Source of the DNA: a virus | IMG/VR virus record: IMGVR_UViG_3300045988_072765 | DNA length: 34,791 bases | Strand: one strand, 5' to 3' | Shown: piece after piece, positions 9,065 through 29,775 of the stretch | How positions within the stretch are numbered: the stretch's first letter is position 1 | How the letters are laid out: every line of letters begins with the position of its first letter | The notes under the pieces: generated by a model | The model's input: the letters and a program-made list of their open reading frames with translations, nothing else | Database searches by the model: none | Told to the model about the DNA's origin: nothing | Program-made: the position numbers and the translations under genes

Positions 9065-10567
9065 ATGCTCAAAATCGCCATTGATGCGGGGCACTACAAG
9101 GGGACGCCGGGGCGGCGGTGTTTAGCCGCCCTGGATCCCAGCGAGACCCGGGAGTGGGAGCTTAACCGCCGGGTGGCAGACAAGCTGGAGGCGCTGCTGG
9201 CGGGGTACGACTGCCAGGTCCTCCGGGTAGACGACAGGACCGGGGACAAGCTGATCGACCTGGGGGACCGGGTGGCGGCGGCCAACGGCTGGCCCGCCGA
9301 CGTATATCTTAGCATCCACCACAACGCAGGTATCAAGGGCGGCAGCGGGGGCGGCTGCGTGGTATACACGGCCCCCGGCTGCCAGGTCAAAAGTAAGGCC
9401 CTCCAGCGGGCCGTTTACGGGGCCGTGGTGAGCCGGACGGGGCTGGTGGGCAACCGGGCCACCCCCATGGCGGAAAGCGGCCTGTACGTGCTCCGGCGGA
9501 CGAAAATGCCCGCTATTCTCATTGAGTGCGGGTTTATGGACAGCTCCACAGACGTGCCGGTGATCCTGGGGCCGTACTTCGCGGGGCAGGTGGCGGACGG
9601 GCTGCTGGCGGCTCTGGTGGAGGTGTTTAATTTGAGCGAGCGCAAGGAGGTGCGGGAGCGGATGAGCTATACCAAGAGGGGCGGGGCCCACATTGTGGAG
9701 GTGCCGGTCAGGGACTTCGCCGTCCGGCTGGTGGACAAGTCCAAAAAGACGGCGTACAGCGGCAACTACTGCAACGCCGGATTTTTTGGCAACTACAACG
9801 AAGGAAAAGACAAGTTTACCCTCCCCGTGGGCCACACGGTGGCCACCATGGCGACGGACAACAAGTGGGTCAACCACTACTGCGCCCAGCGGGGCAAGGT
9901 GTCCGGCGGCAAGCTGGTCTACGCGGAGCCGGGGCGGACGGAGACCACCCTGTTTGTCCGGGGCGGCAAGGCGGACATGGGGGAGCTGAGCGCACCCCCG
10001 GAGGGCTGCGCCTATGCCATTGCGGGCGTGCCCGTACTTCGTCAGGGCAAGGCGGTGAGCTGGGCCACGGCAAAGGCTCAGGGCTGGGAGGCGTCCTCTC
10101 TCTATGCTACATGGCACATCTTTGCCGGGTACGGCCAGGACCGGAGCAAGATCACGGTGGTGGCGCTCAGGACCACGACCGGCAACCTGATCTCCAGCGG
10201 CGAGGGGGCCAAAAAGCTGGCGGCCCTGGGGCTGCGGGAGGCCATCAAGCTGGACGGGGGCGGCAGCACCATCCTGCGGGTGAGTGGAAAGACCCCCGTA
10301 TGCACGGCGGGCAACCGGCGGATCTGCACGGTGCTGACTTTCGGGGGCAACCCCTACGCCGCCCCTACCAAGACACTGGCCAAGGGCAACCGTGGCGAGG
10401 GCGTGCGGTGGCTCCAGTGGGAACTCAATGACCGGGGCTTTGCCTGCGCCGTGGACGGCAGCTTTGGCCCTGGGACCAAGGAGGCCCTGATGGCCTATCA
10501 AGTGAGCGCGGGGCTGGTGCCGGACGGCAGCTGCGGGCCGGCGACCAGAAAGGCGCTGATGGGGTAA
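9065..10567 (+). CDS. Endolysin: N-acetylmuramoyl-L-alanine amidase (Amidase_3), phosphodiester-glycosidase-like (NAGPA/DUF2233-like) domain and PG_binding_1
   Basis: Three motif sets: N-terminal KIAIDAGH...LSIHHNAG; middle NAGFFGN...KLDGGGST; C-terminal GVRWLQWELN..G....DGSFGPGT..AL..YQ...GL..DG..GP.T..AL. Confidence 0.85.
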   Translation: MLKIAIDAGHYKGTPGRRCLAALDPSETREWELNRRVADKLEALLAGYDCQVLRVDDRTGDKLIDLGDRVAAANGWPADVYLSIHHNAGIKGGSGGGCVVYTAPGCQVKSKALQRAVYGAVVSRTGLVGNRATPMAESGLYVLRRTKMPAILIECGFMDSSTDVPVILGPYFAGQVADGLLAALVEVFNLSERKEVRERMSYTKRGGAHIVEVPVRDFAVRLVDKSKKTAYSGNYCNAGFFGNYNEGKDKFTLPVGHTVATMATDNKWVNHYCAQRGKVSGGKLVYAEPGRTETTLFVRGGKADMGELSAPPEGCAYAIAGVPVLRQGKAVSWATAKAQGWEASSLYATWHIFAGYGQDRSKITVVALRTTTGNLISSGEGAKKLAALGLREAIKLDGGGSTILRVSGKTPVCTAGNRRICTVLTFGGNPYAAPTKTLAKGNRGEGVRWLQWELNDRGFACAVDGSFGPGTKEALMAYQVSAGLVPDGSCGPATRKALMG

Positions 10568-12076: not shown

Positions 12077-13120
12077 TTATTTTTTATCCGTAATTTCATC
12101 CGTAATTTTTCCCGCAAAAAAACTATTGATGGCGGTATCTGCTGCGGACTTTTGACTCTCAAACACATAGGAGTAAGTCTGGCGGTAGGTGGACTCGCAG
12201 GCCCAGCCGCCGCGCTCCATGGCGTGCCGGTCATCCACGCCCAGGGTTTTCATCACGGCGGCGTTTGTGTGACGCAGTCCGTGGACTGTGGTATCGGTTA
12301 TCCCGGCCCGCTGACAGGCCCGGTGGACGTGCTTGCGGACGGTCTCCGGATTGACGCCAAAAAGCCGCCCGTCTTTCCGGCGGGGCAGGGCCCGGATCTT
12401 GTCCATGATATAGTCGGGACAATCCACTGTGCGCTGACTGTATGTATTTTTTGCCACCTCTTTGAGTACCCAGTGGTTATCCTCGTCCGGGACCACGGTG
12501 CGGCGGACATGGATCAAGCTGCGGTCCAGGTCCACGCAGTCCCAGCAAAGGCCCAGGATCTCCGAGCGGCGCATCCCCAGCCAGACGGCCAGGAGAATTG
12601 GCACCTCGCAGCTGTCCCCCTCTATGGCCTGGATCAGCTTGCCGATGTCCTCCGGCTGGAGGTACTGCTTGACCGGCTTGACCACCTGGGGCAATCGGAC
12701 GCCAAAAACATCGATTCCGCACTCCTTGAGCACGGGGCGGATCAGGCCGTAGGCATTGGCCACGGTCTTGGCAGAGACCAGCTGGGCCTCCTGATTGACG
12801 GCCCGCTGAACGTGGGCTTTGGTGATCTGGTGGACGTCGCACTGCATAAGCTGGGCAAAGCGGTGCTTTTGGGTGGTGCGGTAGCCCCGTATAGTGGCGG
12901 GAGACAGGACAGCGGCCTTGCTGGTGATATACTCCTTGATGGCCTGGTTTAGCGTCATGCGCTCCGGCGCGTGCTCTATCTTGGCCCCGGCCTTGACGGC
13001 TGCGGCCTGCTGCTCCGCTTCTTTTTTGGTGGGGGCGGTGATGGAGATCCTCTCCCCTGCCACCATCATGTATATGTTCCAGCTCCCGGAGGGGAGCTTT
13101 TTTGCCTTGGGTATTTTCAT
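12077..13120 (-). CDS. int: Tyrosine recombinase / phage integrase
   Basis: 347 aa with the catalytic signature LGMRRSE ... HGLRHT ... GGW ... YSY. AGGAGGA RBS. Adjacent to the tRNA-like attP. Confidence 0.93.
   Translation of the reverse strand: MKIPKAKKLPSGSWNIYMMVAGERISITAPTKKEAEQQAAAVKAGAKIEHAPERMTLNQAIKEYITSKAAVLSPATIRGYRTTQKHRFAQLMQCDVHQITKAHVQRAVNQEAQLVSAKTVANAYGLIRPVLKECGIDVFGVRLPQVVKPVKQYLQPEDIGKLIQAIEGDSCEVPILLAVWLGMRRSEILGLCWDCVDLDRSLIHVRRTVVPDEDNHWVLKEVAKNTYSQRTVDCPDYIMDKIRALPRRKDGRLFGVNPETVRKHVHRACQRAGITDTTVHGLRHTNAAVMKTLGVDDRHAMERGGWACESTYRQTYSYVFESQKSAADTAINSFFAGKITDEITDKK
12086..12109. repeat. Two tandem 12-bp units (ATCCGTAATTTC, ATCCGTAATTTT) inside the integrase 3' end; candidate arm-type sites (P arm)
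   Basis: Same unit as 11853-11888. Here it encodes the integrase C-terminus ...KITDEITDKK. Confidence 0.6.
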
Positions 13121-13151: not shown

Positions 13152-13589
13152 TTAGCCGATACACTTAGAGCAAGGGGTCAGGCCCATGCCGATGGCAGTA
13201 TCCAGAGGGACGGGCCAATAAGTGCCGCCGTTACAATGGGGGTCATTGTGATATTTGGAGCCGGTACGGGTGATATAGGTCTGCTTTGCGGCGGCGGGGG
13301 CCTCCGGAGCCGTCAGGCTGACAGTCTGGGTGGCGCCGTCCCACTGGACCGTATAGCCCACAAGTTTGGCCACATTGGCCACGGGCAAATAAGTGGTGCC
13401 GTTGATAATAAAAGGCTCTGTGGGCGCTCCGGTGGAGTCGGTGATCTGGACAAGCTCCCCGTCTACCTTGAGCGAGATCCCATTAAAATACAAGGTCTCT
13501 GTGCGGGCGGATCCGGTGGCCAGAGCCGCGCCGGTGAGGGACGCGGCGAGGGCACATCCGGCAAAAATCGCTTTCCAATTCTTTTTCAT
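13152..13589 (-). CDS. Secreted protein or lipoprotein: copper-amine-oxidase-N-like stalk domain plus a C-terminal YH/Cys motif domain
   Basis: Start set at MKKNWKAIFAGCALAA (signal peptide with a possible lipobox FAGC) with GGAGAG RBS. INGTTYLPVANVAKLVGYTVQWDGATQTVSL is typical of the Cu_amine_oxidN1-type domain. The C-terminus reads GSKYHNDPHC...PCSKC. Confidence 0.75.
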   Translation of the reverse strand: MKKNWKAIFAGCALAASLTGAALATGSARTETLYFNGISLKVDGELVQITDSTGAPTEPFIINGTTYLPVANVAKLVGYTVQWDGATQTVSLTAPEAPAAAKQTYITRTGSKYHNDPHCNGGTYWPVPLDTAIGMGLTPCSKCIG

Positions 13590-13634
13590 AACGCTATCTC
13601 TCCATTCTGTCTCAAAAATTGACACTATCTGTAC

Positions 13635-13663
13635 TTGACAAACTGAAACAAGTGTTCTATTAT
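13635..13663 (+). promoter_or_regulatory. Sigma70-type promoter firing antisense into the repressor gene
   Basis: TTGACA (13635-13640), exactly 17 nt, TATTAT (13658-13663). The palindrome GTTCTATTATAGAAC (13654-13668) overlaps the -10. Confidence 0.65.
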
Positions 13664-13693
13664 AGAACGTACCACGACAAAGGAGGCTGTGGC

Positions 13694-13819
13694 ATGGACA
13701 CAGAGACAGAGTTGATCCTTATTCTTTCCCGCCTGACCCCAGCCCAGCTTGACCTTTTTCGATCTGCCGCGCGACAGATAGCAAAGCAGATGCAAGGGCA
13801 GGGTTCTGACGACAAATAG
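13694..13819 (+). CDS. Possible 41-aa ORF (MDTETELILILSRLTPAQLDLFRSAARQIAKQMQGQGSDDK) antisense to the repressor 3' end
   Basis: AAAGGAGG RBS 8 nt upstream of the ATG. Has its own promoter and terminator. It overlaps 101 nt of the repressor ORF, so it may instead be a noncoding antisense RNA. Confidence 0.35.
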   Translation: MDTETELILILSRLTPAQLDLFRSAARQIAKQMQGQGSDDK

Positions 13820-14096
13820 ACAACAGCTGTTGGATGTCCTCCGGTAAATCATTTTCGAGCGCTTCGCCGTTTTCGGCGGGGCGCTCTTTTTTTATGTCTC
13901 CCGGTCCGGCCCCAGTCAAAAGATATTCGACAGAGACAGCGAAATGATCTGCAATCTTTTGCAACGTTTTAGGCCGTGGTGTCCCGCCCTGCCGCCATTG
14001 GGTGACAGACGAGGACGGCAGCCCCAACTCTTTTGCAACGCCATTGGGCGTTTTCCCCACTGCCTTGCAGAGGCCCGAGTATTGGTCAAAAAACAT
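13719..14096 (-). CDS. cI-like repressor (XRE-family HTH)
   Basis: 125 aa with an N-terminal HTH (GKTPNGVAKELGLPSSSVTQWRQGG). Divergent from the Cro-like gene. Same strand as the lipoprotein and integrase genes. Confidence 0.8.
   Translation of the reverse strand: MFFDQYSGLCKAVGKTPNGVAKELGLPSSSVTQWRQGGTPRPKTLQKIADHFAVSVEYLLTGAGPGDIKKERPAENGEALENDLPEDIQQLLSICRQNPALASALLSVARQIEKGQAGLGSGGKE
13857..13893 (+). terminator. Strong plus-strand intrinsic terminator embedded in the repressor coding sequence
   Basis: GAGCGC-TT-CGCCG-TTTT-CGGCG-GG-GCGCTC followed by TTTTTTT. In the minus orientation no U-run follows. Confidence 0.75.
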
Positions 14097-14310
14097 AAAA
14101 GCAACCTCATTTTTTTAGCTAAAACGAAAAACCTAAGAATTATGAGATAAACACATTGACAACCTCGTGATTATGAAGTATTATTATCTCGTAAACCTGA
14201 GATATGCTTAGCATATTACGGGCGCAAAATAACACAATCTCATAATACAAGCGCCCCTGTGGTTTGTCAATAATAAAAACTCATACCTATGAGGAAAAGG
14301 AGGCTGAAAT
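14097..14310. promoter_or_regulatory. Lysis-lysogeny switch region with divergent promoters and repeated operator half-sites
   Basis: Plus-strand promoter TTGACA (14156-14161), 17 nt, TATTAT (14179-14184). Half-site TATGAG/CTCATA occurs at 14141, 14239, 14280 and 14288, with TATGAA at 14172. Palindromes are CTCATA-cc-TATGAG (14280-14293), TATCTC-n8-GAGATA (14185-14204) and ATATGCT-t-AGCATAT (14202-14216). Confidence 0.75.
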
Positions 14311-14514
14311 ATGAGTTTTTCTGTCGCCCGGGAAAAGGCCGGGCTGAGCCAGACTGAGGTAGCCAAGGCGCTGGGGGTCAATCAGGCCTCCGTGTCCTAC
14401 TGGGAGAGCGGCAAGACCCAGCCCCGCAGCGCACAGCTGCCGAAAATCGCCAAGCTCTACGGCGTGACCGTGGACGAGCTGCTGAGGGAGGACGAGCAAA
14501 ATGCCGAAAGTTAA
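14311..14514 (+). CDS. Cro-like XRE HTH regulator
   Basis: 67 aa. LSQTEVAKALGVNQASVSYWESGK. AAGGAGG RBS. Divergent from the repressor. Confidence 0.88.
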   Translation: MSFSVAREKAGLSQTEVAKALGVNQASVSYWESGKTQPRSAQLPKIAKLYGVTVDELLREDEQNAES

Positions 14515-14749
14515 ACTGGTTCGGGATGCGCAGGCGGAGCGCTGCAAGACGATCCGCACGATCATCAAGGCCAAGCAGGCCCAGCGGGACATCAAGACCC
14601 AGTCGGATCTGGCCGTGGCCTGCGGGATCTACCCCACGACGTTTTCTTACAAACTCCGCAACGGGGCGTGGACCTGCGACGACATCCGGGCGCTGGACAA
14701 GGTGCTGCGGTTTTCAGGGGACGAGATCGTCCAGATCGTGAGGTGCTGA
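14501..14749 (+). CDS. DUF739-like small HTH protein
   Basis: 82 aa. KTQSDLAVACGIYPTTFSYKLRNGAWTCDDIRAL fits the DUF739 phage HTH pattern (recalled from memory). Confidence 0.6.
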   Translation: MPKVKLVRDAQAERCKTIRTIIKAKQAQRDIKTQSDLAVACGIYPTTFSYKLRNGAWTCDDIRALDKVLRFSGDEIVQIVRC

Positions 14750-14751
14750 CC

Positions 14752-14928
14752 ATGCGGGATCTATGTATCGCGGGCGCTGCCGTGTTCAGCGCGGCGGGCA
14801 TCACCTTTGGGGTGCTGAGCATCCTGGCCGACCGGGGCGACAGCTGGCGGCACGGATTTTTGACCGGGTGTCTGGCTATGTCGCTGACGGCTCTGCTGGG
14901 GGCCGTGGCGGCCAGCTGGGCAATGTGA
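14752..14928 (+). CDS. Small two-TM membrane protein
   Basis: 58 aa from the ATG just after the upstream stop. Two hydrophobic helices. The longer track ORF (14668) overlaps the upstream gene. Confidence 0.5.
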   Translation: MRDLCIAGAAVFSAAGITFGVLSILADRGDSWRHGFLTGCLAMSLTALLGAVAASWAM

Positions 14929-14940
14929 GGAGGCGGACTT

Positions 14941-15084
14941 ATGGACAGACGAGAGAGGACACGGCAGCAGATGCGGAGAGAGCGCCAGGTGGGGCTGGCC
15001 TATCTTGCGGCCATGATCGGGCTGGTGATTTTGGGCAAATGCTTCTGGGAGGCTCTGCTGGCGGCGCTGGAGGCGGCGGCATAG
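14941..15084 (+). CDS. Small basic-N-terminus single-TM protein, paralog A (47 aa)
   Basis: MDRRERTRQQMRRERQVGLAYLAAMIGLVILGKCFWEALLAALEAAA. Below the ORF-track size cutoff. A near-identical paralog lies at 15757-15906. Confidence 0.55.
   Translation: MDRRERTRQQMRRERQVGLAYLAAMIGLVILGKCFWEALLAALEAAA
14961..15068 (+). repeat. 108-bp direct repeat, copy A (105/108 identical to 15780-15887)
   Basis: Aligned by eye. The three mismatches are A/G, T/G and G/T. Confidence 0.9.
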
Positions 15085-15109
15085 TGAGAGACATTGTGAG
15101 GGCAAAACC

Positions 15110-15760
15110 ATGACAGTATTTGACTTTGTTGAGCGTTTTATTCTTTTCGTTATTCCAGGTTTCATTGCGTATAGTATGTTTTGCTATTTAACTGGCAAGA
15201 AGCCACTTTCAGATTTGATTAGTGCATTTTATGTATTTATTGCATCAATATTTTCCTTTATAGTTGGAAATTTTTTACTTCAACTCGTTAATTTCTTTCC
15301 ATACATTGAGTTTCAACTGGTTGAAGTAACTCAAATCTTATCATGGAATAACGGAAGCCTTTCTGTTGCAGGAATCATATCGGCCTCAATTGCTGCAATA
15401 ATTCTTACATTTATCGCGGTATTTGTCTGGGATCAGAACCTACTATTCCGATTTGCTAATTTTTTTAATCTGTCACACAGAGCTGACAATAGCCCGGTGT
15501 GGGACTATATGTTTGACCGTCAGCCGTGGATTGTTGTTCGTGACTATGTGACCGGCAATACATACTATGGAAAAGTTATAAAATATTCTGACGGTACCGA
15601 AACAAGAGAACTTCTATTAGAAGAAGTAAGCGTTTGGAGCAAAGCGGACGGTGAATATAAAATGGAAGAAGTATACCTTTCTCGTTTACCGTCTGAGTTT
15701 TCGATAGAAATAGATAATTATATCAAAGGAGATAACGGAAAGTTGGTGGAGGAAAAATGA
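15110..15760 (+). CDS. AT-rich inserted gene: 216-aa protein with about 3 N-terminal TM helices and a soluble C-terminal domain, function unknown
   Basis: Clean ORF. About 30% GC (18/60 in the line starting 15181) against about 55% (33/60 at 15001) in flanking DNA. TM segments include FILFVIPGFIAYSMFCYL, LISAFYVFIASIFSFIVGNFLLQLV and VAGIISASIAAIILTFIAVFVW. Confidence 0.8.
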   Translation: MTVFDFVERFILFVIPGFIAYSMFCYLTGKKPLSDLISAFYVFIASIFSFIVGNFLLQLVNFFPYIEFQLVEVTQILSWNNGSLSVAGIISASIAAIILTFIAVFVWDQNLLFRFANFFNLSHRADNSPVWDYMFDRQPWIVVRDYVTGNTYYGKVIKYSDGTETRELLLEEVSVWSKADGEYKMEEVYLSRLPSEFSIEIDNYIKGDNGKLVEEK

Positions 15761-15906
15761 CAGACAGACGGACGAGGATACGGCAGCAGATGCGGAGAGA
15801 GCGCCGGGTGGGGCTGGCCTATCTGGCGGCCATGATCGGGCTGGTGATTTTGGGCAAATGCTTCTGGGATGCTCTGCTGGCGGCGCTTGCCATGGCGGCA
15901 ATCTAA
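15757..15906 (+). CDS. Small basic-N-terminus single-TM protein, paralog B (49 aa)
   Basis: MTDRRTRIRQQMRRERRVGLAYLAAMIGLVILGKCFWDALLAALAMAAI. ATGA overlap with the stop of the AT-rich gene. Confidence 0.55.
   Translation: MTDRRTRIRQQMRRERRVGLAYLAAMIGLVILGKCFWDALLAALAMAAI
15780..15887 (+). repeat. 108-bp direct repeat, copy B
   Basis: 105/108 identical to 14961-15068. Confidence 0.9.
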
Positions 15907-15930
15907 ACGACTTTACAGCTGCCGGGGCAG

Positions 15931-16167
15931 ATGGATCCGGCGGCGTGGGAGGGATCTATTTTGTGCAAGACTAAGACAATGACGCTGCCCACTGCGGAGA
16001 GCGTCACGGGCGACATTCTGGACCGGTTTGGCCCGGGAAAAGTGTGGCAGGTGGAGCGGATGAGCGACCGCATTTTCCGGGTCTGGCTGACCTGCGGGGC
16101 GGTGGCGCTGGCCACGGTCGGGCAGGACGGTGGACTGACCATCCAGGTCATGGAGGGCTGGGTATGA
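15931..16167 (+). CDS. Hypothetical small protein (start uncertain)
   Basis: 78-aa ORF. Its stop overlaps the next start as ATGA. Alternative starts at TTG 15961 or ATG 15979. Confidence 0.45.
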   Translation: MDPAAWEGSILCKTKTMTLPTAESVTGDILDRFGPGKVWQVERMSDRIFRVWLTCGAVALATVGQDGGLTIQVMEGWV

Positions 16168-16979
16168 CCAAGAGTGAGATCGTGGCCAGCGACAAGACCG
16201 GAGGCGGAATGTTTGTTGTGATCCCCTCCGTGGTCATGCGGGACCCGGAGTTGTCCCTGTCGGCTAAGATGCTGTACGGCGTGATTACGTGGAAATGCAA
16301 CGAGAGCGCCTGCTGCTGGGCGACAAACCGGACGCTGGGCGATGAGCTGGGGCTGTCCCCCAAGCGGATCTCCGCCCTTTTGTCTGCGCTGGAGGCGCAG
16401 GGGCACATTGAGATGGAGATCATCCGGGACCCGGAGAGCAACCAGATCACCAGGCGGAACATCTACCCCATGGTAAAATCCGCAAGACTTACACCCAAGA
16501 ATGAGGATACCCCTATCCCCGAAAATGAGGATACCTCCCCCCATTTACAAGGTGAGCCTATCCCCGAAAAAGCGGAGGAGAAATATAAAGAAGAAATAAA
16601 AAAAGAAATAAATACCCCCCTTACCCCCCATAGGGGGGCACGGACGGAGCGCAAGAGCAAGTACGATCTTGCGGAGGACGCCAAGCCCATCCTCCGGTCC
16701 TACGTCAAGGACGACGCAGAGCTTGCCCGGCTCCTGGGGGATTTTATCGACACCCGGAAAAAGCTGCGGGCCATCAACTCCAAACGGGCGCTGGCCATCC
16801 AGCTGGAGACGCTGGACAAGCTGAGCGGGGGCGACCGGGGCCAGAAGCTGGAGCTGCTGAAGCAGTCCATCGGCAACAGCTGGAAAGGCATTTTCCCGCT
16901 GAAGGCTGGCGGACGGCCCGCCCCGGCGGAGCCGGAACGGCTGGAGCTGGTGCAGGGGCCGGGGGTGTATGACCTATGA
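16164..16979 (+). CDS. Replication initiator / replisome organiser (N-terminal winged-helix, DnaD-like C-terminus)
   Basis: Start set at MTKSEIV (GGAGGG RBS). MLYGVITWKCNE...TNRTLGDELGLSPKRISALLSALEAQGHIE is a wHTH. Lies directly upstream of the DnaB-like helicase. An iteron-like cluster sits inside the gene. Confidence 0.75.
   Translation: MTKSEIVASDKTGGGMFVVIPSVVMRDPELSLSAKMLYGVITWKCNESACCWATNRTLGDELGLSPKRISALLSALEAQGHIEMEIIRDPESNQITRRNIYPMVKSARLTPKNEDTPIPENEDTSPHLQGEPIPEKAEEKYKEEIKKEINTPLTPHRGARTERKSKYDLAEDAKPILRSYVKDDAELARLLGDFIDTRKKLRAINSKRALAIQLETLDKLSGGDRGQKLELLKQSIGNSWKGIFPLKAGGRPAPAEPERLELVQGPGVYDL
16500..16638. promoter_or_regulatory. Candidate origin of replication inside the initiator gene (iterons, AT-rich tract and G/C hairpin)
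   Basis: AATGAGGATACC at 16500-16511 and 16524-16535. CCTATCCCCGAAAA at 16512-16525 and 16557-16570. AT-rich tract at 16581-16614. CCCCCC-ata-GGGGGG at 16624-16638. Confidence 0.5.
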
Positions 16980-18319
16980 GCCAGACACCGAGCCGTTACT
17001 ACGAGGCCCAGATCGGCGTGCTGGGCTCCATGCTCATCGACGGGGCGCACACGGCGGGCCTGGTGATGCAAGGGGTGCAGGCGGAGGATTTTACCGGCCC
17101 AAACCGGGCGGTATTTGACGCCTGCCGCAAGCTGTTCCAGGCGGGAAAGCCCATTGACGCTGTGACCGTCGGCCACCTGCTGGGACCGGAGTATCAAAAG
17201 TTGCTGCTTGACCTGATGGATCTGACGCCCACGGCGGCCAATGTGCGGGAGTATATCACCCTGACGGTGGAGCAGTCAAAGCTTGCCAAGCTCAAGGACC
17301 TTGGGGCATCCCTGGTGGGATGCGTGGACGCGGCGGAGGCCCAGAGCCTGCTGGCTCAGGCCAACCGGATCGCCGTCGGGCGGCCCAGCGTGCGGGTTGT
17401 GTCCATGGAGCAGGGGCTGCTGGACTTTTACGAGCGGCAGCGGACAGAGGCGGTACATATCACTTGGGGCCTGCCCAAGGTGGACGGGGCCATGATGTCG
17501 GAGTTTGGGGATTTTATCATCCTGGGCGGCGAGCCGTCCACGGGCAAAACGGCCCTGTCCCTGCAAATGGCATGGACACAGGCGCAAAAGCACCGAGTGG
17601 GGTACTTTAGCCTGGAGACCAAGCCGGAAAAGATCGTGGACCGTGCGGTGTCCGCAGTTACTGGGGTGGACTTTGGCAAGATCAAGCGCCACAAGATGGA
17701 TCCGGAGGATTGGGAGGCCTGCGAGGCCAGATCCTCCGGCATGGTGGGGCGCAAGCTGGAAATCATCCAGGCGGGCGGCCTGTCGGTGCTGGACATCCAG
17801 GCCATGACGGCGGCGGGCCGGTACGAGATCATCTACATCGACTACATCCAGCTGGTGGCGCCGGAGGACCGGCGGCGGTCGGACTTTGAGCAGGTGACGC
17901 AGATATCCAAGGACCTGCACACTCTGGCCCAGACCACAGGGGTGACGGTGATTGCCCTGTCCCAGCTGGCGCGGCCCCAGACCGGACAAGGCAAGGTCAA
18001 GTCCCCGGGGATGCACTCTCTGCGGCAGTCGGGACAGCTGGAGCAGGACGCCGACGGGATCCTGCTGCTGTATCTGGAGGAGCCTGGAAACACGAGGGCG
18101 CGGCGGTGCCTGCAAATCGCCAAGAACAAAGAGGGCGAGGCCGGAGGCGTGGATTATCTGGCCTTTGACGGAGCCCACCAGAGGTTCCGGGAGTCTTTGG
18201 CTCAGGTGGCCAAGCCTATCCAGGACAAGCCGGTGCAGACGGCATTTTACGACATTCCGGGCAGCGTCCCGCTGCCCTTTGACGGCACTGATGAGGGCAA
18301 GGACGGGATGCCATTTTGA
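16976..18319 (+). CDS. Replicative DNA helicase (DnaB-like)
   Basis: 447 aa. N-terminus AQIGVLGSMLID. Walker A GGEPSTGKTALSLQMA. IDYIQL and SQL..R motifs. Confidence 0.92.
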   Translation: MSQTPSRYYEAQIGVLGSMLIDGAHTAGLVMQGVQAEDFTGPNRAVFDACRKLFQAGKPIDAVTVGHLLGPEYQKLLLDLMDLTPTAANVREYITLTVEQSKLAKLKDLGASLVGCVDAAEAQSLLAQANRIAVGRPSVRVVSMEQGLLDFYERQRTEAVHITWGLPKVDGAMMSEFGDFIILGGEPSTGKTALSLQMAWTQAQKHRVGYFSLETKPEKIVDRAVSAVTGVDFGKIKRHKMDPEDWEACEARSSGMVGRKLEIIQAGGLSVLDIQAMTAAGRYEIIYIDYIQLVAPEDRRRSDFEQVTQISKDLHTLAQTTGVTVIALSQLARPQTGQGKVKSPGMHSLRQSGQLEQDADGILLLYLEEPGNTRARRCLQIAKNKEGEAGGVDYLAFDGAHQRFRESLAQVAKPIQDKPVQTAFYDIPGSVPLPFDGTDEGKDGMPF

Positions 18320-18335
18320 GGAGGACGAGCTAAAG

Positions 18336-18863
18336 ATGATGTCAAATAATTTGTATTTGTGCGACCCCGTGAAGAATAGGTTTTGCCCAAAGACACACTG
18401 CCACAACCCGTGCTATCACACGCACGACCCTGAGTGTGCCTGGGAGCCCACACTCAGGGTCCGTCTGGACGAGGGGGCCTATCTGCCCCAGCGGGCCCAC
18501 GGCACCGACGGGGGGTTGGATATTCGCACGCCGGTGGACGCCTACGTCCGGGCCGGGGGCAGTACGGTGATCGACACCGGGGTGCATATCCAGCTGCCGC
18601 CCTGTACGGTGTGTATGATCAAAAGCAAAAGCGGCCTCAACATCAAGGACGGGATCGTGTCCGAGGGCGTCATTGATGAGGGCTACACCGGGAGCATTAC
18701 AGTCAAGCTGTACAACCACGGCACCGAGGCCAAGCAGTTTAGCAGGGGCGACAAGATCACTCAGCTGGTTGTGCTGCCGGTGCTGTATGTCAAAGTGGAG
18801 CAGGTGGAGGAGATCCAGGGCGGGCCCAGAGGAGATAATGGGTATGGGAGTACGGGACGATGA
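18336..18863 (+). CDS. dut: dUTP diphosphatase (trimeric dUTPase) with an N-terminal Cys/His-rich extension of about 38 aa
   Basis: Start set at ATGATG after GAGGAGG. Motifs GGLDIR, GVIDEGYTGSI, GDKITQLV and RGDNGYGSTG. Confidence 0.9.
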   Translation: MMSNNLYLCDPVKNRFCPKTHCHNPCYHTHDPECAWEPTLRVRLDEGAYLPQRAHGTDGGLDIRTPVDAYVRAGGSTVIDTGVHIQLPPCTVCMIKSKSGLNIKDGIVSEGVIDEGYTGSITVKLYNHGTEAKQFSRGDKITQLVVLPVLYVKVEQVEEIQGGPRGDNGYGSTGR

Positions 18864-19517
18864 AGGTTCTTGAACTTTTTGCAGGGACACGCTCTATTGG
18901 TAAAGCGTTCGCGGCTCGGGGACACCAGGTGTACTCCGTGGAGTGGGACAAGCGATTTGACCACATCGACCTATACGCCGATATCCTTAAGTTGACTGCG
19001 CAAGACGTCCTGCGAGAGTTTGGGCGGCCTGATGTGATCTGGGCAAGCCCGGACTGTGCAACTTTTAGCATTGCAGCCATCAGCCACCACCGACGGAAAA
19101 ACCCAGAAACCGGAAACTTGGACCCAGTAAGCGAGTACGCCAAATTCTGCGATGCGGTGGACCAGCACGTTTTGCGGTTGATTCTGGCTTTGTCCCCGAC
19201 CTACTGGTTCATCGAGAACCCGCAGCAGGATGCGCAAAATGACGTGGATGGAGGGACTGCCCCGGTACACCGTCACATACTGTCAGTACGGGGACACCCG
19301 AATGAAGCCCACGGACATTTGGACAAATCATCCGCTGCCCAGATTTAAACCGCCTTGTCATAACGGCGACCCGTGCCATATCTCTGCCCCGCGCGGGGCC
19401 AAAACGGGGACGCAAGGGCTGGCTGGCAGTATGGAGAGGTCAATTATCCCTGCTGCGCTGTGTGACCATATCGTAGATATTTGTGAGGAGACGGAGTGGA
19501 ATGTCACAGTCTGTTAA
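18860..19517 (+). pseudogene. Short phage-type DNA (cytosine-5) methyltransferase interrupted by a +1 frame change just after the ENP motif (about 19223-19230)
   Basis: The first frame gives LELFAGTRS (motif I), SPDCATFS (PC motif) and WFIENP. The protein-like sequence then continues in the next frame as MRKMTWMEGLPRYTVTYCQYGDTRMKPTDIW..., while the first frame runs on as QQDAQNDVDGGTAPVHRH... Confidence 0.7.
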
Positions 19518-19896
19518 ATTGCCATTTAAGTTTTCGTATACGCAGCCGTCATTAGATTGGTTTGAGACTATCAACGTAGAGATCAAGCCAGACGACTACT
19601 ATTATTTTAAACTCCAGCTGAGATATAGCCCTGACTGGTGGCTTATGGGACAAAATCCACCCCCAGAAAATTCCACGCGCTACGAATGGTCGGAGACAGA
19701 TATTGGGAGAATTTCGCCGCATGATATTGCGAGGTTTATCGAGTGGGCGAAATACGATTCGGGCGGAAGCAAAATTGTGGAGATTTCGGAGATAAGCGGC
19801 TCTTTTGATATTCTCCGCGAAATTAAAAAGCTTTTACTTGATCCCGGCATCGCCCAGGCCATGGCGGATTTTGGAGTACGGGGAGGCAAAATGTGA
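19501..19896 (+). CDS. Hypothetical protein (AT-richer gene between the methyltransferase and the PAPS-reductase-like gene)
   Basis: 131 aa from ATG 19501. No recognisable motifs. Confidence 0.6.
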   Translation: MSQSVKLPFKFSYTQPSLDWFETINVEIKPDDYYYFKLQLRYSPDWWLMGQNPPPENSTRYEWSETDIGRISPHDIARFIEWAKYDSGGSKIVEISEISGSFDILREIKKLLLDPGIAQAMADFGVRGGKM

Positions 19897-20717
19897 ACAT
19901 CGTATCTTTCGGCGGCGGCACCAACAGCACCGCAATGATCATCGGAATGTATCTGCACAAGATCCCCATTGACCTGATCCTGTTTGCGGACACCGGGGGC
20001 GAGCAGCCGCACACCTATGCGTTTATTGAGATATTTAATAACTGGCTTGTGGAGCATGGACTGCCGAAGATCATCTCCGTGGAGTACCACGACAAGGAAG
20101 GGAATCGGCTGACGCTGGAACAGGAGTGCCTAAACAGCGGAACACTTCCATCCATCGCCTATGGGTTTAAGCGATGCTCGTTAAAACACAAGATCGGAAC
20201 GCAGGAAAAATTCTGCAACAACTACCAGCCATGCAAGGACGTGTGGGCCAGCGGACAGAGAGTCCACAAGTTTATTGGATACGATGCCGGTGAGACCCGG
20301 CGCATCCAGCACGCAGCCCTGGCGGACGAGGCAAACAAAAAATACGAGAACCACTACCCCCTCTATGAGTGGGGCTGGACCCGGGATGAGTGCGTGCGCG
20401 TGATCGAGCGGGCCGGACTGCCCAGGCCCGGGAAAAGCTCCTGTTTCTTCTGTCCCTCCATGAAAAAGAAGGAAATACAGGCCCTGTGGGAGAATTATCC
20501 GGATCTGTTCCGCCGGGCGGTGGAGATCGAGCACGGGGCGGCGGCAACCAATGTGACCGTAAAAGGGCTTGGGAGGAACTGGTCCTGGGAGAGCTACTAC
20601 AACGAGTTTATGATGAATAAGGAGCTTGAGGACGCACAGATCACCTTTGACGAGTTATTCCCAGACAGCCCTGGCGGCTGCCTTTGCGGCGCTCCGTGCG
20701 GGTGCTATGACGGTTAA
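19893..20717 (+). CDS. PAPS-reductase-like / PP-loop ATP-pyrophosphatase family protein
   Basis: 274 aa with a GTG start after GGGAGG. N-terminal PP-loop-like SFGGGTNSTAM, then DLILFADTGGE. C-terminal Cys cluster CFFCP...GGCLCGAPCGCYDG. Confidence 0.75.
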   Translation: MNIVSFGGGTNSTAMIIGMYLHKIPIDLILFADTGGEQPHTYAFIEIFNNWLVEHGLPKIISVEYHDKEGNRLTLEQECLNSGTLPSIAYGFKRCSLKHKIGTQEKFCNNYQPCKDVWASGQRVHKFIGYDAGETRRIQHAALADEANKKYENHYPLYEWGWTRDECVRVIERAGLPRPGKSSCFFCPSMKKKEIQALWENYPDLFRRAVEIEHGAAATNVTVKGLGRNWSWESYYNEFMMNKELEDAQITFDELFPDSPGGCLCGAPCGCYDG

Positions 20718-20731
20718 GGAGGTGGCTTGGA

Positions 20732-21643
20732 ATGGATTGTAACGTACTGCAAGGCGACGCGCTGGAGCTGCTGCGGACGCTGCCGCCAGAAAGCGTACAT
20801 ACCTGCGTGACCTCCCCGCCCTACTATAATTTGCGGGATTACGGAGTGGAGGGGCAGATCGGGAACGAGGCCAGCGTGGAAGAATATCTGCAGAAGCTGG
20901 TCACAGTTTTTCGTGAGGTTAGACGGGTACTGCGGCCAGATGGAACTCTGTGGGTAAACGTGGGCGATAGTTATGCTGCCAATTCGGGGAACCAGCCGCC
21001 GACGAACACCCGAAATTCCTGCGGACACACCGCAAAGCGCGTACCGTATGGGTACAAGAAAAAAGACATGATCGGCATACCTTGGCAGTTGGCCTTTGCC
21101 CTCCGCGCAGATGGTTGGTATTTGCGGCAAGACATCATTTGGCAGAAACCGAACTGTATGCCGGAGAGCGTAAATGACCGATGCACGAAGTCACATGAGT
21201 ACATCTTCCTGCTGTCAAAGTCAGAGCGCTATTATTTCGACGCGGCGGCGATCAGCGAGCCGGTCACATCGGCTAAAGGAAACGCAAGGACGTTTCGCGG
21301 CGGCGGAGCCTATACCGGCGGTCGATCTCACGACAACAGCGCACAGGTGGAGCGCGAGAGCCACGGTAATAGCGAGAACAAGACGGGGCGCAGGAACAAG
21401 CGGAGCGTCTGGAGCGTAAGCACAAACGGATTTCGCGGCGCACACTTCGCCGTGTTCCCGGAAAAGCTGATCGAGCCATGTATTTTAGCAGGCTGCCCAG
21501 AGGGCGGTGTTGTACTTGACCCATTTGCGGGCAGCGGCACAACAGGCGTGGTGTCCAAACGCATGGGGCGCGGTTTTGTGGGATGTGAAATCAATCCCTC
21601 GTATGTAGAAATGGCCGCCGGAAGAATAGGAGAGGTTGAATGA
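20732..21643 (+). CDS. DNA N4/N6 methyltransferase (N6_N4_Mtase family, beta class)
   Basis: TSPPYYN catalytic motif near the N-terminus. VLDPFAGSGTTGVV SAM-binding motif near the C-terminus. Confidence 0.9.
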   Translation: MDCNVLQGDALELLRTLPPESVHTCVTSPPYYNLRDYGVEGQIGNEASVEEYLQKLVTVFREVRRVLRPDGTLWVNVGDSYAANSGNQPPTNTRNSCGHTAKRVPYGYKKKDMIGIPWQLAFALRADGWYLRQDIIWQKPNCMPESVNDRCTKSHEYIFLLSKSERYYFDAAAISEPVTSAKGNARTFRGGGAYTGGRSHDNSAQVERESHGNSENKTGRRNKRSVWSVSTNGFRGAHFAVFPEKLIEPCILAGCPEGGVVLDPFAGSGTTGVVSKRMGRGFVGCEINPSYVEMAAGRIGEVE

Positions 21644-27648: not shown

Positions 27649-29775
27649 ATGGGCCGGGAGGCCATGATCCGCGCCGACATGGAGGCCGTCGGCACCTACA
27701 ACCCGATTTTTGACAAGACCATCAAAGCCCTGGCCCGGACGGAGCGCGAGCTTTCCCGGGCGGAAAAGACCTGGCGGGAGAACGGGGCCCAGCTGGTGGC
27801 CAAGCAGGTGAACAAGGCCGGGGCCGAGTATCTGGCCCGAGACCCGTACTGGGCGGCGGTGGACAAGCTGCGGGCTGACGTGCAGTCTCTGCGCACTCAG
27901 CTGGGGCTGACGCCAAAGGCGCTGAAGGCCGTACAGACCAAGCTGGCAGAGACGGCCAGCGGCCGGCGCAGCCGTCTGGCCGAGCTGATGGACGCGGCCC
28001 ACGAGCACGCCATGACTCATGCCGGGGACTACCAAGCGGAGGTGGACGGCTACGTCAACGGGGTGCTGTCCGGGGAGACGGTGGCCTGCGAGGAGATCGT
28101 GCTGGCCTGCAAGCGCTATGTGCGGGACCTGGAAAACCCCAAGTGGGATTTTCGGTTTGAGCCGGCCTGCGAGATCATCGCCATCATCGAGACCATGATG
28201 TGCCACCAGCAGGGGGAATTTATGGACGGCACGCCTTTGCGGGGCACGCCCTTCCTGCTACTCCCCTACCACAAGTTCATCGTGGCGAACATCATGGGCT
28301 TTTACCAGCGGGGCACACAGCTGCGGCGGTTTACCGAGGCCCAGGACTTTATCCCCAGGAAAAATATCAAGACCACCTTTGCCGCTGCCCTGGCCTGGGC
28401 GCTGGCCCTGTACTACGCGCCATCCGGCTCAAAGGTGTACGAGGTGGGCGGCGCCCTGAAGCAGGCCCTGGAGGGCTTTGACTTCATCAAGTACAACATC
28501 AAGCGCCTGCACCTGACGGTGGAGGACGACCAGGAGAACGGCCTGCGGGTCATCAACAACAACATGGAGCGGTCCATCACCGGAGACCTGGGGGACGCCG
28601 GTTTTATCAGCATCAACGCCCTGGCCGCCAGTGTGGACAAGCAGGACAGCTTTAACTGCAACATCGTGATCGCCGACGAGGAGCACACCTACAAAAGCCC
28701 CCAGCAGTATCAGGTCCTGAAGGACGCAACCAAGGCATACTCCAACAAATTGGTGATCGGGATCTCCTCCGGCGGCAAACTGGCCCATGGATTTTTAGCC
28801 CGGCGCGTGGACTACTGCCGCAAGGTGCTGAACGGCACCATTACCGGAGACGCTGCGGACAGTCTGTTTATTTTTCTGGCCTGCGCCCCACGGATGGACA
28901 ACGGGGACGTGGACTACACCAACGAGCAGGTATTGGCCGGGTGCAATCCAGGCTGGGGCCAGTCCATCCGGCCCCAGGACATGCTGAACGACGCCGCCCA
29001 AGCCAAGGACGACCCACAGCTGCGGCCCGAGTTTTTGCAGAAGTCGTTAAACGTATTCACGGCGGAGCTAAAGGCATGGTTTGACGTGGAGGAATTCCGG
29101 GCCAGCGACCGGCAATATAACTGGACGCTGGACGAGCTGCGGCGGCTGCCCATCCGGTGGTACGGCGGAAGCGACCTGTCTAAGCTACACGACCTGACGG
29201 CGGCCTGTCTGTTTGGCCACTACAAGGGCGTGGACATCATCATCCCCCACTGCTGGTTCCCGGTGACGGCGGCCATGGTCAAAGCCAATGAGGACCAGAT
29301 CCCCCTGTTTGGCTGGAAGGACGACGGCTGGCTGGACATGTGCAACGACAAGGTGCTCAACTACTCTGACGTGGTCAAGTGGTACATGGCCCGGCGGGCG
29401 GAGGGATTTAAGATCCGCCGGATCGGACACGACCGGAGATTTTGCCGGGAGTACTACGTGGAGATGAAAAAGCAGCACTTCCCCATCAAGGACCAGCCCC
29501 AGCTGTTCACCCGGAAAAGCGAGGGCTTCCGGTATCTGGAAGCCAGCACCAAACGGGGCACCCTGTATTACTGCCACGCGGAGCCCTTTGAGTACTGCGT
29601 GCAGAACGTCCGGGGCATCGAAAAGAGCGACGACATGGTGATGTATGAGAAGCTGGAGCCGCACCTGCGCATTGACGTGTTTGACTGCGCTGTGTTTGCG
29701 GCCTGTACCTATCTGGAGGATCTGGAGGCGGGCGGCAAGTCCGCCGCCTGGTTTGGAGGTGACGAGAAAGCGTGA
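27649..29775 (+). CDS. terL: Terminase: P27-like small-subunit segment fused in frame to the large subunit
   Basis: 708 aa. Residues about 1-105 (YNPIFDKTIKALA...SLRTQLGLTPKALKA) resemble P27-family TerS. The rest is a Terminase_1-type TerL with ATPase and nuclease regions, followed by the portal gene. Confidence 0.85.
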   Translation: MGREAMIRADMEAVGTYNPIFDKTIKALARTERELSRAEKTWRENGAQLVAKQVNKAGAEYLARDPYWAAVDKLRADVQSLRTQLGLTPKALKAVQTKLAETASGRRSRLAELMDAAHEHAMTHAGDYQAEVDGYVNGVLSGETVACEEIVLACKRYVRDLENPKWDFRFEPACEIIAIIETMMCHQQGEFMDGTPLRGTPFLLLPYHKFIVANIMGFYQRGTQLRRFTEAQDFIPRKNIKTTFAAALAWALALYYAPSGSKVYEVGGALKQALEGFDFIKYNIKRLHLTVEDDQENGLRVINNNMERSITGDLGDAGFISINALAASVDKQDSFNCNIVIADEEHTYKSPQQYQVLKDATKAYSNKLVIGISSGGKLAHGFLARRVDYCRKVLNGTITGDAADSLFIFLACAPRMDNGDVDYTNEQVLAGCNPGWGQSIRPQDMLNDAAQAKDDPQLRPEFLQKSLNVFTAELKAWFDVEEFRASDRQYNWTLDELRRLPIRWYGGSDLSKLHDLTAACLFGHYKGVDIIIPHCWFPVTAAMVKANEDQIPLFGWKDDGWLDMCNDKVLNYSDVVKWYMARRAEGFKIRRIGHDRRFCREYYVEMKKQHFPIKDQPQLFTRKSEGFRYLEASTKRGTLYYCHAEPFEYCVQNVRGIEKSDDMVMYEKLEPHLRIDVFDCAVFAACTYLEDLEAGGKSAAWFGGDEKA

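Follow-up and report, generated by a model that had tools for sequence, protein, structure and literature searches.

An AT-rich membrane-protein gene between two copies of a small gene in a temperate gut phage, apparently captured from a type I restriction-modification operon

The stretch of DNA analysed here (the window) is the virus record IMGVR_UViG_3300045988_072765, 34,791 nucleotides long, which is a whole temperate phage genome (34.8 kb) of gut-metagenome origin. Its early rightward operon contains an AT-rich gene for a 216-residue membrane protein, bracketed by two copies of a small gene with one transmembrane (TM) helix, and this gene, its probable source and its possible role are the subject of this work. 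A sequence-only reading of the same DNA had proposed a recent horizontal insertion, made by recombination that duplicated its target. The elements of the locus are the following.

14941-15084, plus strand: copy 1 of the small TM gene, 47 aa
15082-15730, plus strand: captured AT-rich segment, 649 bp, GC 0.36, delimited by DNA homology to restriction-modification (R-M) loci
15110-15760, plus strand: open reading frame (ORF) of 216 aa, with three TM helices and a predicted Sm/LSm-like barrel; its last 9 codons come from a phage repeat-protein gene
15731-15756, plus strand: 26-nt 3' remnant of a DUF7666/collagen-like repeat gene (...NGKWVE.. and stop), from the alignment with L015, L018 and L019 against R-M loci
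15757-15906, plus strand: copy 2 of the small TM gene, 49 aa

On recount, the repeat core (14961-15068 against 15780-15887) is identical at exactly the 105 of 108 positions first reported, with mismatches at 14987, 15006 and 15051, and the repeat in register is longer (14929-15081 and 15748-15900, 153 nt, 88%). As had been described, each core belongs to a small ORF, of 47 and 49 aa respectively, and both ORFs have an Arg-rich N-terminus and one hydrophobic helix. Copy 1 ends in a stop at the left joint instead of the final Ile codon (the L041 allele reads ...LEAAAI) and is otherwise complete; the 216-aa ORF stops in an ATGA that also holds the start of copy 2, and the tails of the two copies differ (LEAAA vs LAMAAI). 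The small TM gene is conserved across the phage group, with 46 protein clusters, and is therefore not a chance ORF. The ortholog of copy 2 is found as a single copy with the same downstream context in L015, L017, L019 and L041, and a scan with the 49-aa protein gave no match in genome contigs and at least two loci in metagenomes. With regard to gene conversion between them, the two copies match at 105/108 positions in the window and at 99/108 in L016, and the single-copy alleles of other phages are equally close (104-106).

The 216-aa ORF has a GC content of 0.358 and a GC content at third codon positions (GC3) of 0.313, against 0.59-0.67 and 0.76-0.86 in all the neighbouring genes (the flanks have a GC of about 62-64%); the line counts by which this difference was first noticed (18/60 and 33/60) are exact. 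DNA homology to the non-phage relatives is confined to 15093-15732 (it starts at 15093/15094 and ends at 15728-15736 in full-length loci), with 69-79% identity to full-length R-M loci and 90.7% over 15093-15675 to L056, the closest one. The segment carries the last few codons of hsdS with a GAGGG ribosome-binding site (~15085-15109), followed by a DUF6338-type gene that lacks its last few codons. At the left joint, homology to the sister phages stops at 15081 and the hsdS tail with its GAGGG site begins (IVRAKP-stop in the window, IVRVKT-stop in R-M loci); in L056 and other R-M loci the hsdS end, ...LLLTGIVRVKT-stop, lies directly 5' of the gene. At the right joint, source homology stops at 15728-15732 and phage homology restarts at 15731-15734, inside a shared GGAGA (~15726-15732), and from the 26-nt remnant that follows, the captured ORF gets its stop codon and copy 2 its GGAGG ribosome-binding site. 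The ribosome-binding sites of the locus are intact. No mobility gene (transposase, recombinase) and no terminal inverted repeats were found in the 649-bp insert.

Four states of the slot around the small TM gene were found in the sister phages. In the first one the slot is empty and the genes for a 58-aa protein, a single small TM protein and a 78-aa protein follow each other (L017 and L041); such sites, which had been anticipated as the counterpart of an insertion, show that the arrangement of the window is not universal. In the second state the 58-aa gene and a single small TM gene are separated by an upstream cargo, a DUF7666 repeat protein (L015/L043/L045, L019/L042, L044 and L018), and L018 has in addition yet another downstream module. 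In the third state a different downstream cargo, a 68-aa gene, lies directly 3' of a single small TM gene (L061-L065). The fourth state is the filled one, found in the window, L016/L040 and L057. The DUF7666 repeat gene consists of an N-terminal DUF7666 domain and many 27-nt tandem repeats (9 aa, GAASATGxx) that match the Pfam collagen model, it is absent from the empty-site phages, and it was located as follows.

L015 1-285: DUF7666 repeat gene
L018 1-270: DUF7666 repeat gene
L019 1-548: DUF7666 repeat gene
L044 8769-9170: DUF7666 repeat gene
L045 1-640, minus strand: DUF7666 repeat gene

Copy 2 came with the upstream context of the second state and copy 1 with the context of the first or the third, and therefore the two copies are alleles from differently organised genomes. 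According to this, the locus is a three-way mosaic with two illegitimate joints (or one template-switching repair) rather than a target-site duplication, and the small TM gene is present twice because arms from differently organised phage lineages were joined through foreign DNA. Thus, of the insertion first proposed, the foreign origin stood, as the homology to the source is confined to 15093-15732, and the duplication of the target did not, as the 26 nt before copy 2 come from another gene that the empty-site phages lack. Precise loss of the insert through the repeats is plausible. The single small gene of L017 combines a copy 1-type N-terminus with a copy 2-type C-terminus; L017 is not a recent deletion product of the window phage, because its flanks are too diverged (84% downstream).

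Some other observations concern the same slot. The 68-aa cargo (L061 4114-4320, also in L062-L065; MMSHLECMEQ..., 51% GC) is an unrelated gene that occupies the position taken in the window by the junction with the AT-rich gene. The repeats of the DUF7666 gene break assemblies, and the contig IMGVR_UViG_3300045988_039643 has them at both ends, which suggests a circular genome. A seemingly different left context, in L001 1-612, was discarded: this is a short low-coverage ENA contig in which an enterobacterial EpmA/PoxA-like sequence is joined to window 15055 onward via the shared CTGCTGGCGGCGCTGGAGGCGG 22-mer, almost certainly an assembly chimera.

The search with the 216-aa protein returned 45 homologs at E<=1e-3, and all the non-phage relatives that were placed (8/8) lie directly 3' of hsdS in a type I R-M operon. 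Their identities to the window protein are 90% (P0002), 79% (P0003), 72% (P0004), 72% (P0005, in two contexts), 59% (P0007), 55% (P0015) and 46% (P0044), and hsdR follows in every R-M locus whose contig reaches far enough. These operons are of one lineage, with HsdM 78-91%, HsdR 70-85% and a trailing YgjP-like protein 49-71% identical, and the DUF6338-type gene (58-72%) diverges along with them, following the same rank order. The cargo of the hsdM-hsdS interval does change (RhuM, a TIR protein, DUF4145, a metallo-beta-lactamase-fold protein, Trypsin_2, DUF6414), and some of the operons adjoin Mob_Pre, RepA_N and TnpV genes, which indicates that they are on mobile elements. All these data point to the 216-aa gene being foreign and captured from a bacterial type I R-M operon.

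The GC3 of the DUF6338-type gene is ~0.2-0.32 even where that of hsdM and hsdR is 0.73-0.75, and low GC is a family trait of this gene in every context. It therefore provides no clock for the transfer, and the use of low GC as a dating argument was rejected, given that GC-rich R-M operons carry an equally AT-rich form of the gene. With respect to its age, the insertion is not very recent, since the same joints are present in three lineages and the synonymous divergence between the phage copies is 0.03-0.06. Two further observations on composition were made: in L028 8001-8633 and its equivalents in L020, L034, L036 and L046 the GC3 is ~0.2-0.32 though synonymous sites are saturated, and the neighbouring hsdS in R-M operons is also AT-richer.

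In the R-M operons the gene has a regular neighbour, as a small basic proline-rich ORF of 51-73 aa lies directly 3' of it in all seven contexts with a readable 3' side (L056 was left out of this count, as it diverges before the end of the gene). The partner ORF carries the motif NPNP(N/D)Y(K/R/V)PP in these contexts and was found at the following positions, the last of which is on the Bacillus plasmid described below.

L020 6110-6268: partner ORF
L034 6002-6181: partner ORF
L036 8126-8296: partner ORF
L032 2153-2320: partner ORF
L046 7632-7787: partner ORF
L049 3355-3576: partner ORF
L066 5266-5388: partner ORF on B. cereus pAH187_45

The phage captured the membrane gene alone, and the partner ORF was not taken. 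The only tblastn match among plasmids, a weak one, is a distant homolog in Bacillus cereus plasmid pAH187_45 that has TM helices and the same C-terminal domain; it is followed by a 40-aa ORF reading ...KPLTPRPPAPPAQPPKQNKNN and adjoined by a caspase-like peptidase and a nuclease. Furthermore, proline-rich small proteins detected by proteomics have been described beside a DUF6338 gene in Pseudomonas stutzeri (PMC10433244). As the partner is seen in the R-M loci, in pAH187_45 and in P. stutzeri, the pairing looks general, and the TM-plus-Sm-like gene with its proline-rich ORF looks like an unrecognised two-gene module. The partner itself had no match in Pfam or NCBIfam, and a word-based homolog search with it returned only itself.

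An AlphaFold2 model of the 216-aa protein was built with 38 homologs (mean pLDDT 81.6, pTM 0.61), and it bore out the expectation of about three N-terminal TM helices followed by a soluble C-terminal domain. In the model, long helices at residues 3-28, 36-60 and 86-108 (TM region, residues 3-108 = 15116-15433) are followed by short amphipathic helices, and the C-terminal part (residues 128-200; 15491-15709) has a helix at 128-137 and strands at 140-145, 151-159, 166-177, 181-192 and 197-200, with a block-mean pLDDT of 75-93 over residues 131-200. The first loop is Lys-rich, the second acidic and the stretch after TM3 basic, which by the positive-inside rule suggests an N-out/C-in topology with a cytoplasmic barrel. 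The predicted C-terminal domain has the N-terminal helix and the five-stranded, strongly bent antiparallel sheet of the Sm/LSm-like fold, and the top 50 Foldseek matches in the PDB were all Sm/LSm proteins (E ~3e-4, probability 1.00, TM-score by target 0.54-0.68). Among PDB sequences, a profile search gave SmD3 only, with a similarity that is not significant (E=0.18); this alignment sets the invariant G154 and D161 on positions of the Sm1 motif and R192 on a position of the Sm2 motif. Among viral structures, an uncharacterised, full-length protein of a gut siphovirus is the best match (E=9e-6). Like the window protein, Sm/LSm/Hfq-type barrels (RNA-binding ring formers of an SH3-like fold class that includes the WYL domain) combine a helix with a five-stranded bent sheet; in the window protein, however, the barrel is tethered to three TM helices. 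The mechanosensitive channel MscS has three TM helices and an Sm-like beta domain. The likeness to it is one of layout only, with no profile similarity (hhalign of the family alignment against E. coli MscS gave a probability of 0.13), and an MscS-type channel was rejected.

Regarding the family, the protein matches PF19865 (DUF6338), to which a resemblance had been suggested in the sequence-only reading, with E=9.6e-5 and nearly over its full length (residues 9-179 on model positions 10-174 of 205). The suggestion was therefore in the right direction, but its 22.5 bits are under the 26.5-bit gathering threshold and formal membership is not attained. PF19865 also matches 20 of the 38 close homologs at E<=1e-3; a clade profile retrieved 1086 cluster representatives, of which seven out of ten sampled match PF19865 at E<=0.01 and one is above the cut-off (30.1 bits). 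The window protein shares with DUF6338 the length (~170-220 aa), the N-terminal TM helices and the integral membrane character, and differs in that it and most of its clade score 17-26 bits against the threshold of 26.5; from these scores we file it as a fringe relative or sister clade of DUF6338. There is also a match to phrog_4525 (E=0.005). As DUF6338 has no assigned function in Pfam, family membership says little on mechanism.

The order of the early rightward operon is Cro, 82-aa helix-turn-helix (HTH) protein, 58-aa membrane protein, copy 1, 216-aa gene, copy 2, 78-aa ORF, initiator and DnaB, with the following features outside the captured region.

14156-14184, plus strand: promoter-like site TTGACA-17-TATTAT, 5' of the Cro-like gene
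14270-14242, minus strand: promoter-like site
14311-14514, plus strand: Cro-like HTH gene, divergent from the cI-like gene (Pfam and PHROGs matches)
14501-14749, plus strand: 82-aa HTH-like protein, left-arm early gene (Pfam/PHROGs)
14752-14928, plus strand: 58-aa two-helix membrane protein, left-arm early gene
15931-16167, plus strand: 78-aa ORF, right-arm early gene
16164-16979, plus strand: replication initiator with HTH_36, right-arm early gene
16976-18319, plus strand: DnaB-type helicase, right-arm early gene

The order of the left-arm genes (Cro-like, 82-aa and 58-aa) is conserved in L017, L041, L044 and L061, and the right-arm genes are kept 3' of the small TM gene in all the sister phages. 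A consensus scan found no plus-strand promoter-like site inside or just 5' of the insert and no convincing terminator flanking the 216-aa gene. As the only plus-strand promoter-like site is upstream of cro, the 216-aa gene is presumably transcribed from there, and the site at 14156-14184 is presumed to be the early rightward promoter that drives the whole operon including the captured gene. Terminator-like matches inside both small-gene copies and a minus-strand promoter-like match in the AT-rich gene were weak with respect to the consensus and were taken as chance. The early operon also holds DNA methyltransferases at 18860-19348 and 20732-21643 and a PAPS-reductase-like gene at 19893-20717, which suggests that the phage invests in counter-restriction.

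Since its arrival the captured gene has had a history of its own. Both joints of the window are shared by L016/L040 and L057, with 9 additional nt duplicated at the right joint of L057 (YIKYIK), which indicates one capture followed by spread onto backbones with differing flanks. The window allele keeps all the invariant residues. In L057 copy 2 of the small TM gene is cut to 26 aa with loss of its hydrophobic core, and the 216-aa protein has lost an internal part after which TM1 and the C-terminal domain remain on the same membrane side; compared with the window there are 4 non-synonymous changes in the 127 shared codons, so that the Sm-like domain is almost unchanged. Furthermore, fragments 100% identical to the window over the overlap, which contain or abut the gene, were found in at least 12 separate metagenome samples, as short contigs.

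The account that we consider on balance probable comprises the capture from an R-M operon, a mosaic locus, a membrane-anchored Sm-like protein and a role in exclusion or defence. As the sequence comparisons show, a conserved 47-49-aa membrane gene in the Cro-side operon has variable slots on both sides, and a 649-bp AT-rich fragment, with the hsdS tail and nearly all of the next gene, was taken from a type I R-M operon by illegitimate recombination. The left joint coincides with the final codon of the small TM gene, and the right joint, at the GGAGA microhomology, fuses the captured ORF in frame to the 9 last codons of the repeat-protein gene. The 216-aa protein, made from the early promoter, would assemble into a membrane-anchored ring and would there counter competing phages or incoming DNA, by superinfection exclusion or as an abortive effector. 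The gene would be dispensable for the phage, as empty sites exist. It is common for genes lying within type I R-M operons to have defence functions (PMC11411939; bioRxiv 10.1101/2024.01.29.577857), and the homologs of the window gene do sit in a defence operon in 8/8 cases, the phage copy itself being outside any such operon. That the protein is a moron-like effector of exclusion or defence at the membrane, from a defence-linked source, is put forward only tentatively and with considerable doubt; what speaks for exclusion or abortive infection is one thing, the position of its relatives inside restriction operons.

Several data weigh against this function. The ratio of non-synonymous to synonymous divergence (dN/dS) between the phage copies is 0.51-0.77; it falls to 0.10-0.15 when these are compared with L056, and the closer R-M copies give 0.09-0.14 among themselves. 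The constraint on the phage copies is clearly relaxed. In L016 the Trp131 that is invariant in 38 homologs is replaced by Leu (W131L), and in L057 (217-706) residues 34-111 (TM2-TM3) are deleted in frame, which fits decay as well as a new role. The gene sits in the lytic early operon, outside the lysogeny-expressed region, and without the partner ORF, which is missing from the phage, the protein may have no activity or a different one. In the R-M operons the gene is a stable accessory that co-diverges with HsdR, unlike swappable defence cargo, and therefore guilt by embedding is weakened. At E<=1, neither the 216-aa protein nor the two small TM proteins matched any family of PADLOC (PADLOC-DB v2), NCBIfam gave no match for the 216-aa protein, and tblastn of the protein against cultured phages gave no homolog. 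Moreover, that the protein forms a ring, or that its barrel binds nucleic acid or a proline-rich peptide, may be supposed from the predicted fold only.

Part of these data would be expected if the gene were passenger DNA, that is, filler trapped when two broken or misaligned phage genomes were joined, which brings no benefit, hitch-hikes with the early operon and decays slowly. The dN/dS of 0.51-0.77 against ~0.1 in R-M contexts, the W131L of L016 at an invariant site, the 78-residue internal deletion and truncated copy 2 of L057, the missing partner gene and the illegitimate nature of both joints are all in line with this. However, after a synonymous divergence of ~0.06 the window and L016/L040 still have an unbroken, in-frame and translationally coupled ORF, and even the deletion of L057 is in frame, keeps the topology and leaves the Sm-like domain almost unchanged. 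The cassette is also on backbones with differing flanks, so that it has been spread or retained through recombination, and its 100%-identical fragments come from at least 12 separate metagenome samples. We consider a mere passenger rather unlikely.

A second possibility, which we judge improbable, is an anti-restriction decoy, in which the stolen, partner-less R-M accessory would be expressed early and would titrate the partner of the host or mislocalise the restriction complex, blunting the host system. Its SH3/Sm-like domain would normally bind the proline-rich partner or the restriction complex. SH3-like barrels commonly bind proline-rich peptides. A decoy would agree with this property, with the co-divergence of the gene with HsdM, HsdR and the YgjP-like gene as a fixed operon member, with its capture without the partner ORF, and with the presence, in the same early operon, of typical counter-restriction functions (two DNA methyltransferases and a PAPS-reductase-like gene); the deletion of L057 also spares TM1 and an intact Sm-like domain on the same membrane side. 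On the other hand, nothing indicates that the host of the phage carries this R-M operon, the relaxed constraint in the phage copies and W131L in L016 are unlike a decoy under selection, and restriction of incoming DNA can come before early gene expression. In a still less probable elaboration, the TM-plus-Sm-like protein and its proline-rich partner would form a membrane-tethered receptor/ligand module, a built-in accessory of one type I R-M lineage, of which the phage stole the receptor alone and expresses it early as a decoy that sequesters the partner peptide or the restriction complex and so disarms the host system. Finally, the insertion of a mobile element (transposon, insertion sequence, homing element or site-specific recombination) into the small TM gene with a long target-site duplication is hardly credible: direct repeats do bracket one foreign gene and an empty site does exist, but the 649 bp have no transposase, recombinase or terminal inverted repeat, the repeat is of ~150 bp with different allele tails in its copies (LEAAA vs LAMAAI), the 26 nt before copy 2 come from another phage gene absent in the empty-site phages, and the ends of the insert lie inside hsdS and inside the captured ORF, so that a transposon with target-site duplication is contradicted by the joint sequences. 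The remaining probability goes to other roles for the 216-aa protein.

Returning to the exclusion or defence role, several phage membrane proteins are known to act in superinfection exclusion, such as Imm and Sp of T4, SieA of P22 and the lactococcal Sie2009. The window protein resembles these and other morons in being a small membrane protein of foreign composition, dispensable and at a mosaic boundary; in contrast, it has no homology to them and its gene is in a lytic early operon. Of the traits of a moron it shows the foreign composition and lacks a promoter and a terminator of its own. The likeness to R-M-embedded genes (PrrC, TgvAB, RloC-type genes and the candidates of Payne et al. 2024) is that the relatives of the window gene lie between hsdS and hsdR, and known or candidate defence genes (RhuM, TIR, DUF4145 and Trypsin_2) are found elsewhere in the same operons. 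They differ in that these relatives co-diverge with the operon and that the window protein has no PADLOC match; DUF6338 is not named in the text or supplements of Payne et al. 2024.

Temperate phages are known to take up host or mobile-element genes at their mosaic boundaries, and the protein family is catalogued. What is new here is the source inside a type I R-M operon, the conserved proline-rich partner and the Sm-like fold. In this case the capture can be traced, as the joints, the context of the source, the empty sites, the alternative cargos and the later decay are all readable from the sequence, and it illustrates how, in a mosaic phage operon, recombination is anchored in short conserved genes that flank variable slots. 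Moreover, the pair of a membrane/Sm-like gene and a proline-rich gene in type I R-M operons of gut Firmicutes is missing from the defence catalogues searched and is a candidate for functional study. The phage copy may be just a decaying passenger, and so the importance of the finding is moderate.

With respect to the rest of the genome, megablast of 13600-18400 against cultured phages gave no match. The closest genome relatives of the DnaB protein are prophages in Lawsonibacter, Oscillibacter and Oscillospiraceae metagenome-assembled genomes (40-63% identity); as all of these are distant and lack this slot, only a loose assignment of the host can be made, and it is probably an Oscillospiraceae bacterium. 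The genome also encodes a recombination directionality factor, a terminase and a capsid protein, together with the genes listed below.

9065-10567: amidase lysin
12077-13120, minus strand: tyrosine integrase
13719-14096, minus strand: cI-like repressor

Within the initiator ORF (16164-16979) there are three 20-nt direct repeats (CCTATCCCCGAAAATGAGGA-like; spacings 24 and 45 nt) at 16488-16576, which resemble iterons and may mark an origin as in lambda O. The 708-aa ORF at 27649-29775 joins a small-terminase domain (Terminase_4, residues 9-98) to TerL ATPase and nuclease domains and may be a TerS-TerL fusion. Finally, between the integrase and the cI-like repressor, a 157-aa protein (13152-13625, minus strand) has a Cu_amine_oxidN1 domain and a signal/lipoprotein-like N-terminus; its gene is also present in L061-L064, and its position is the classic one for a lysogeny-expressed accessory gene.

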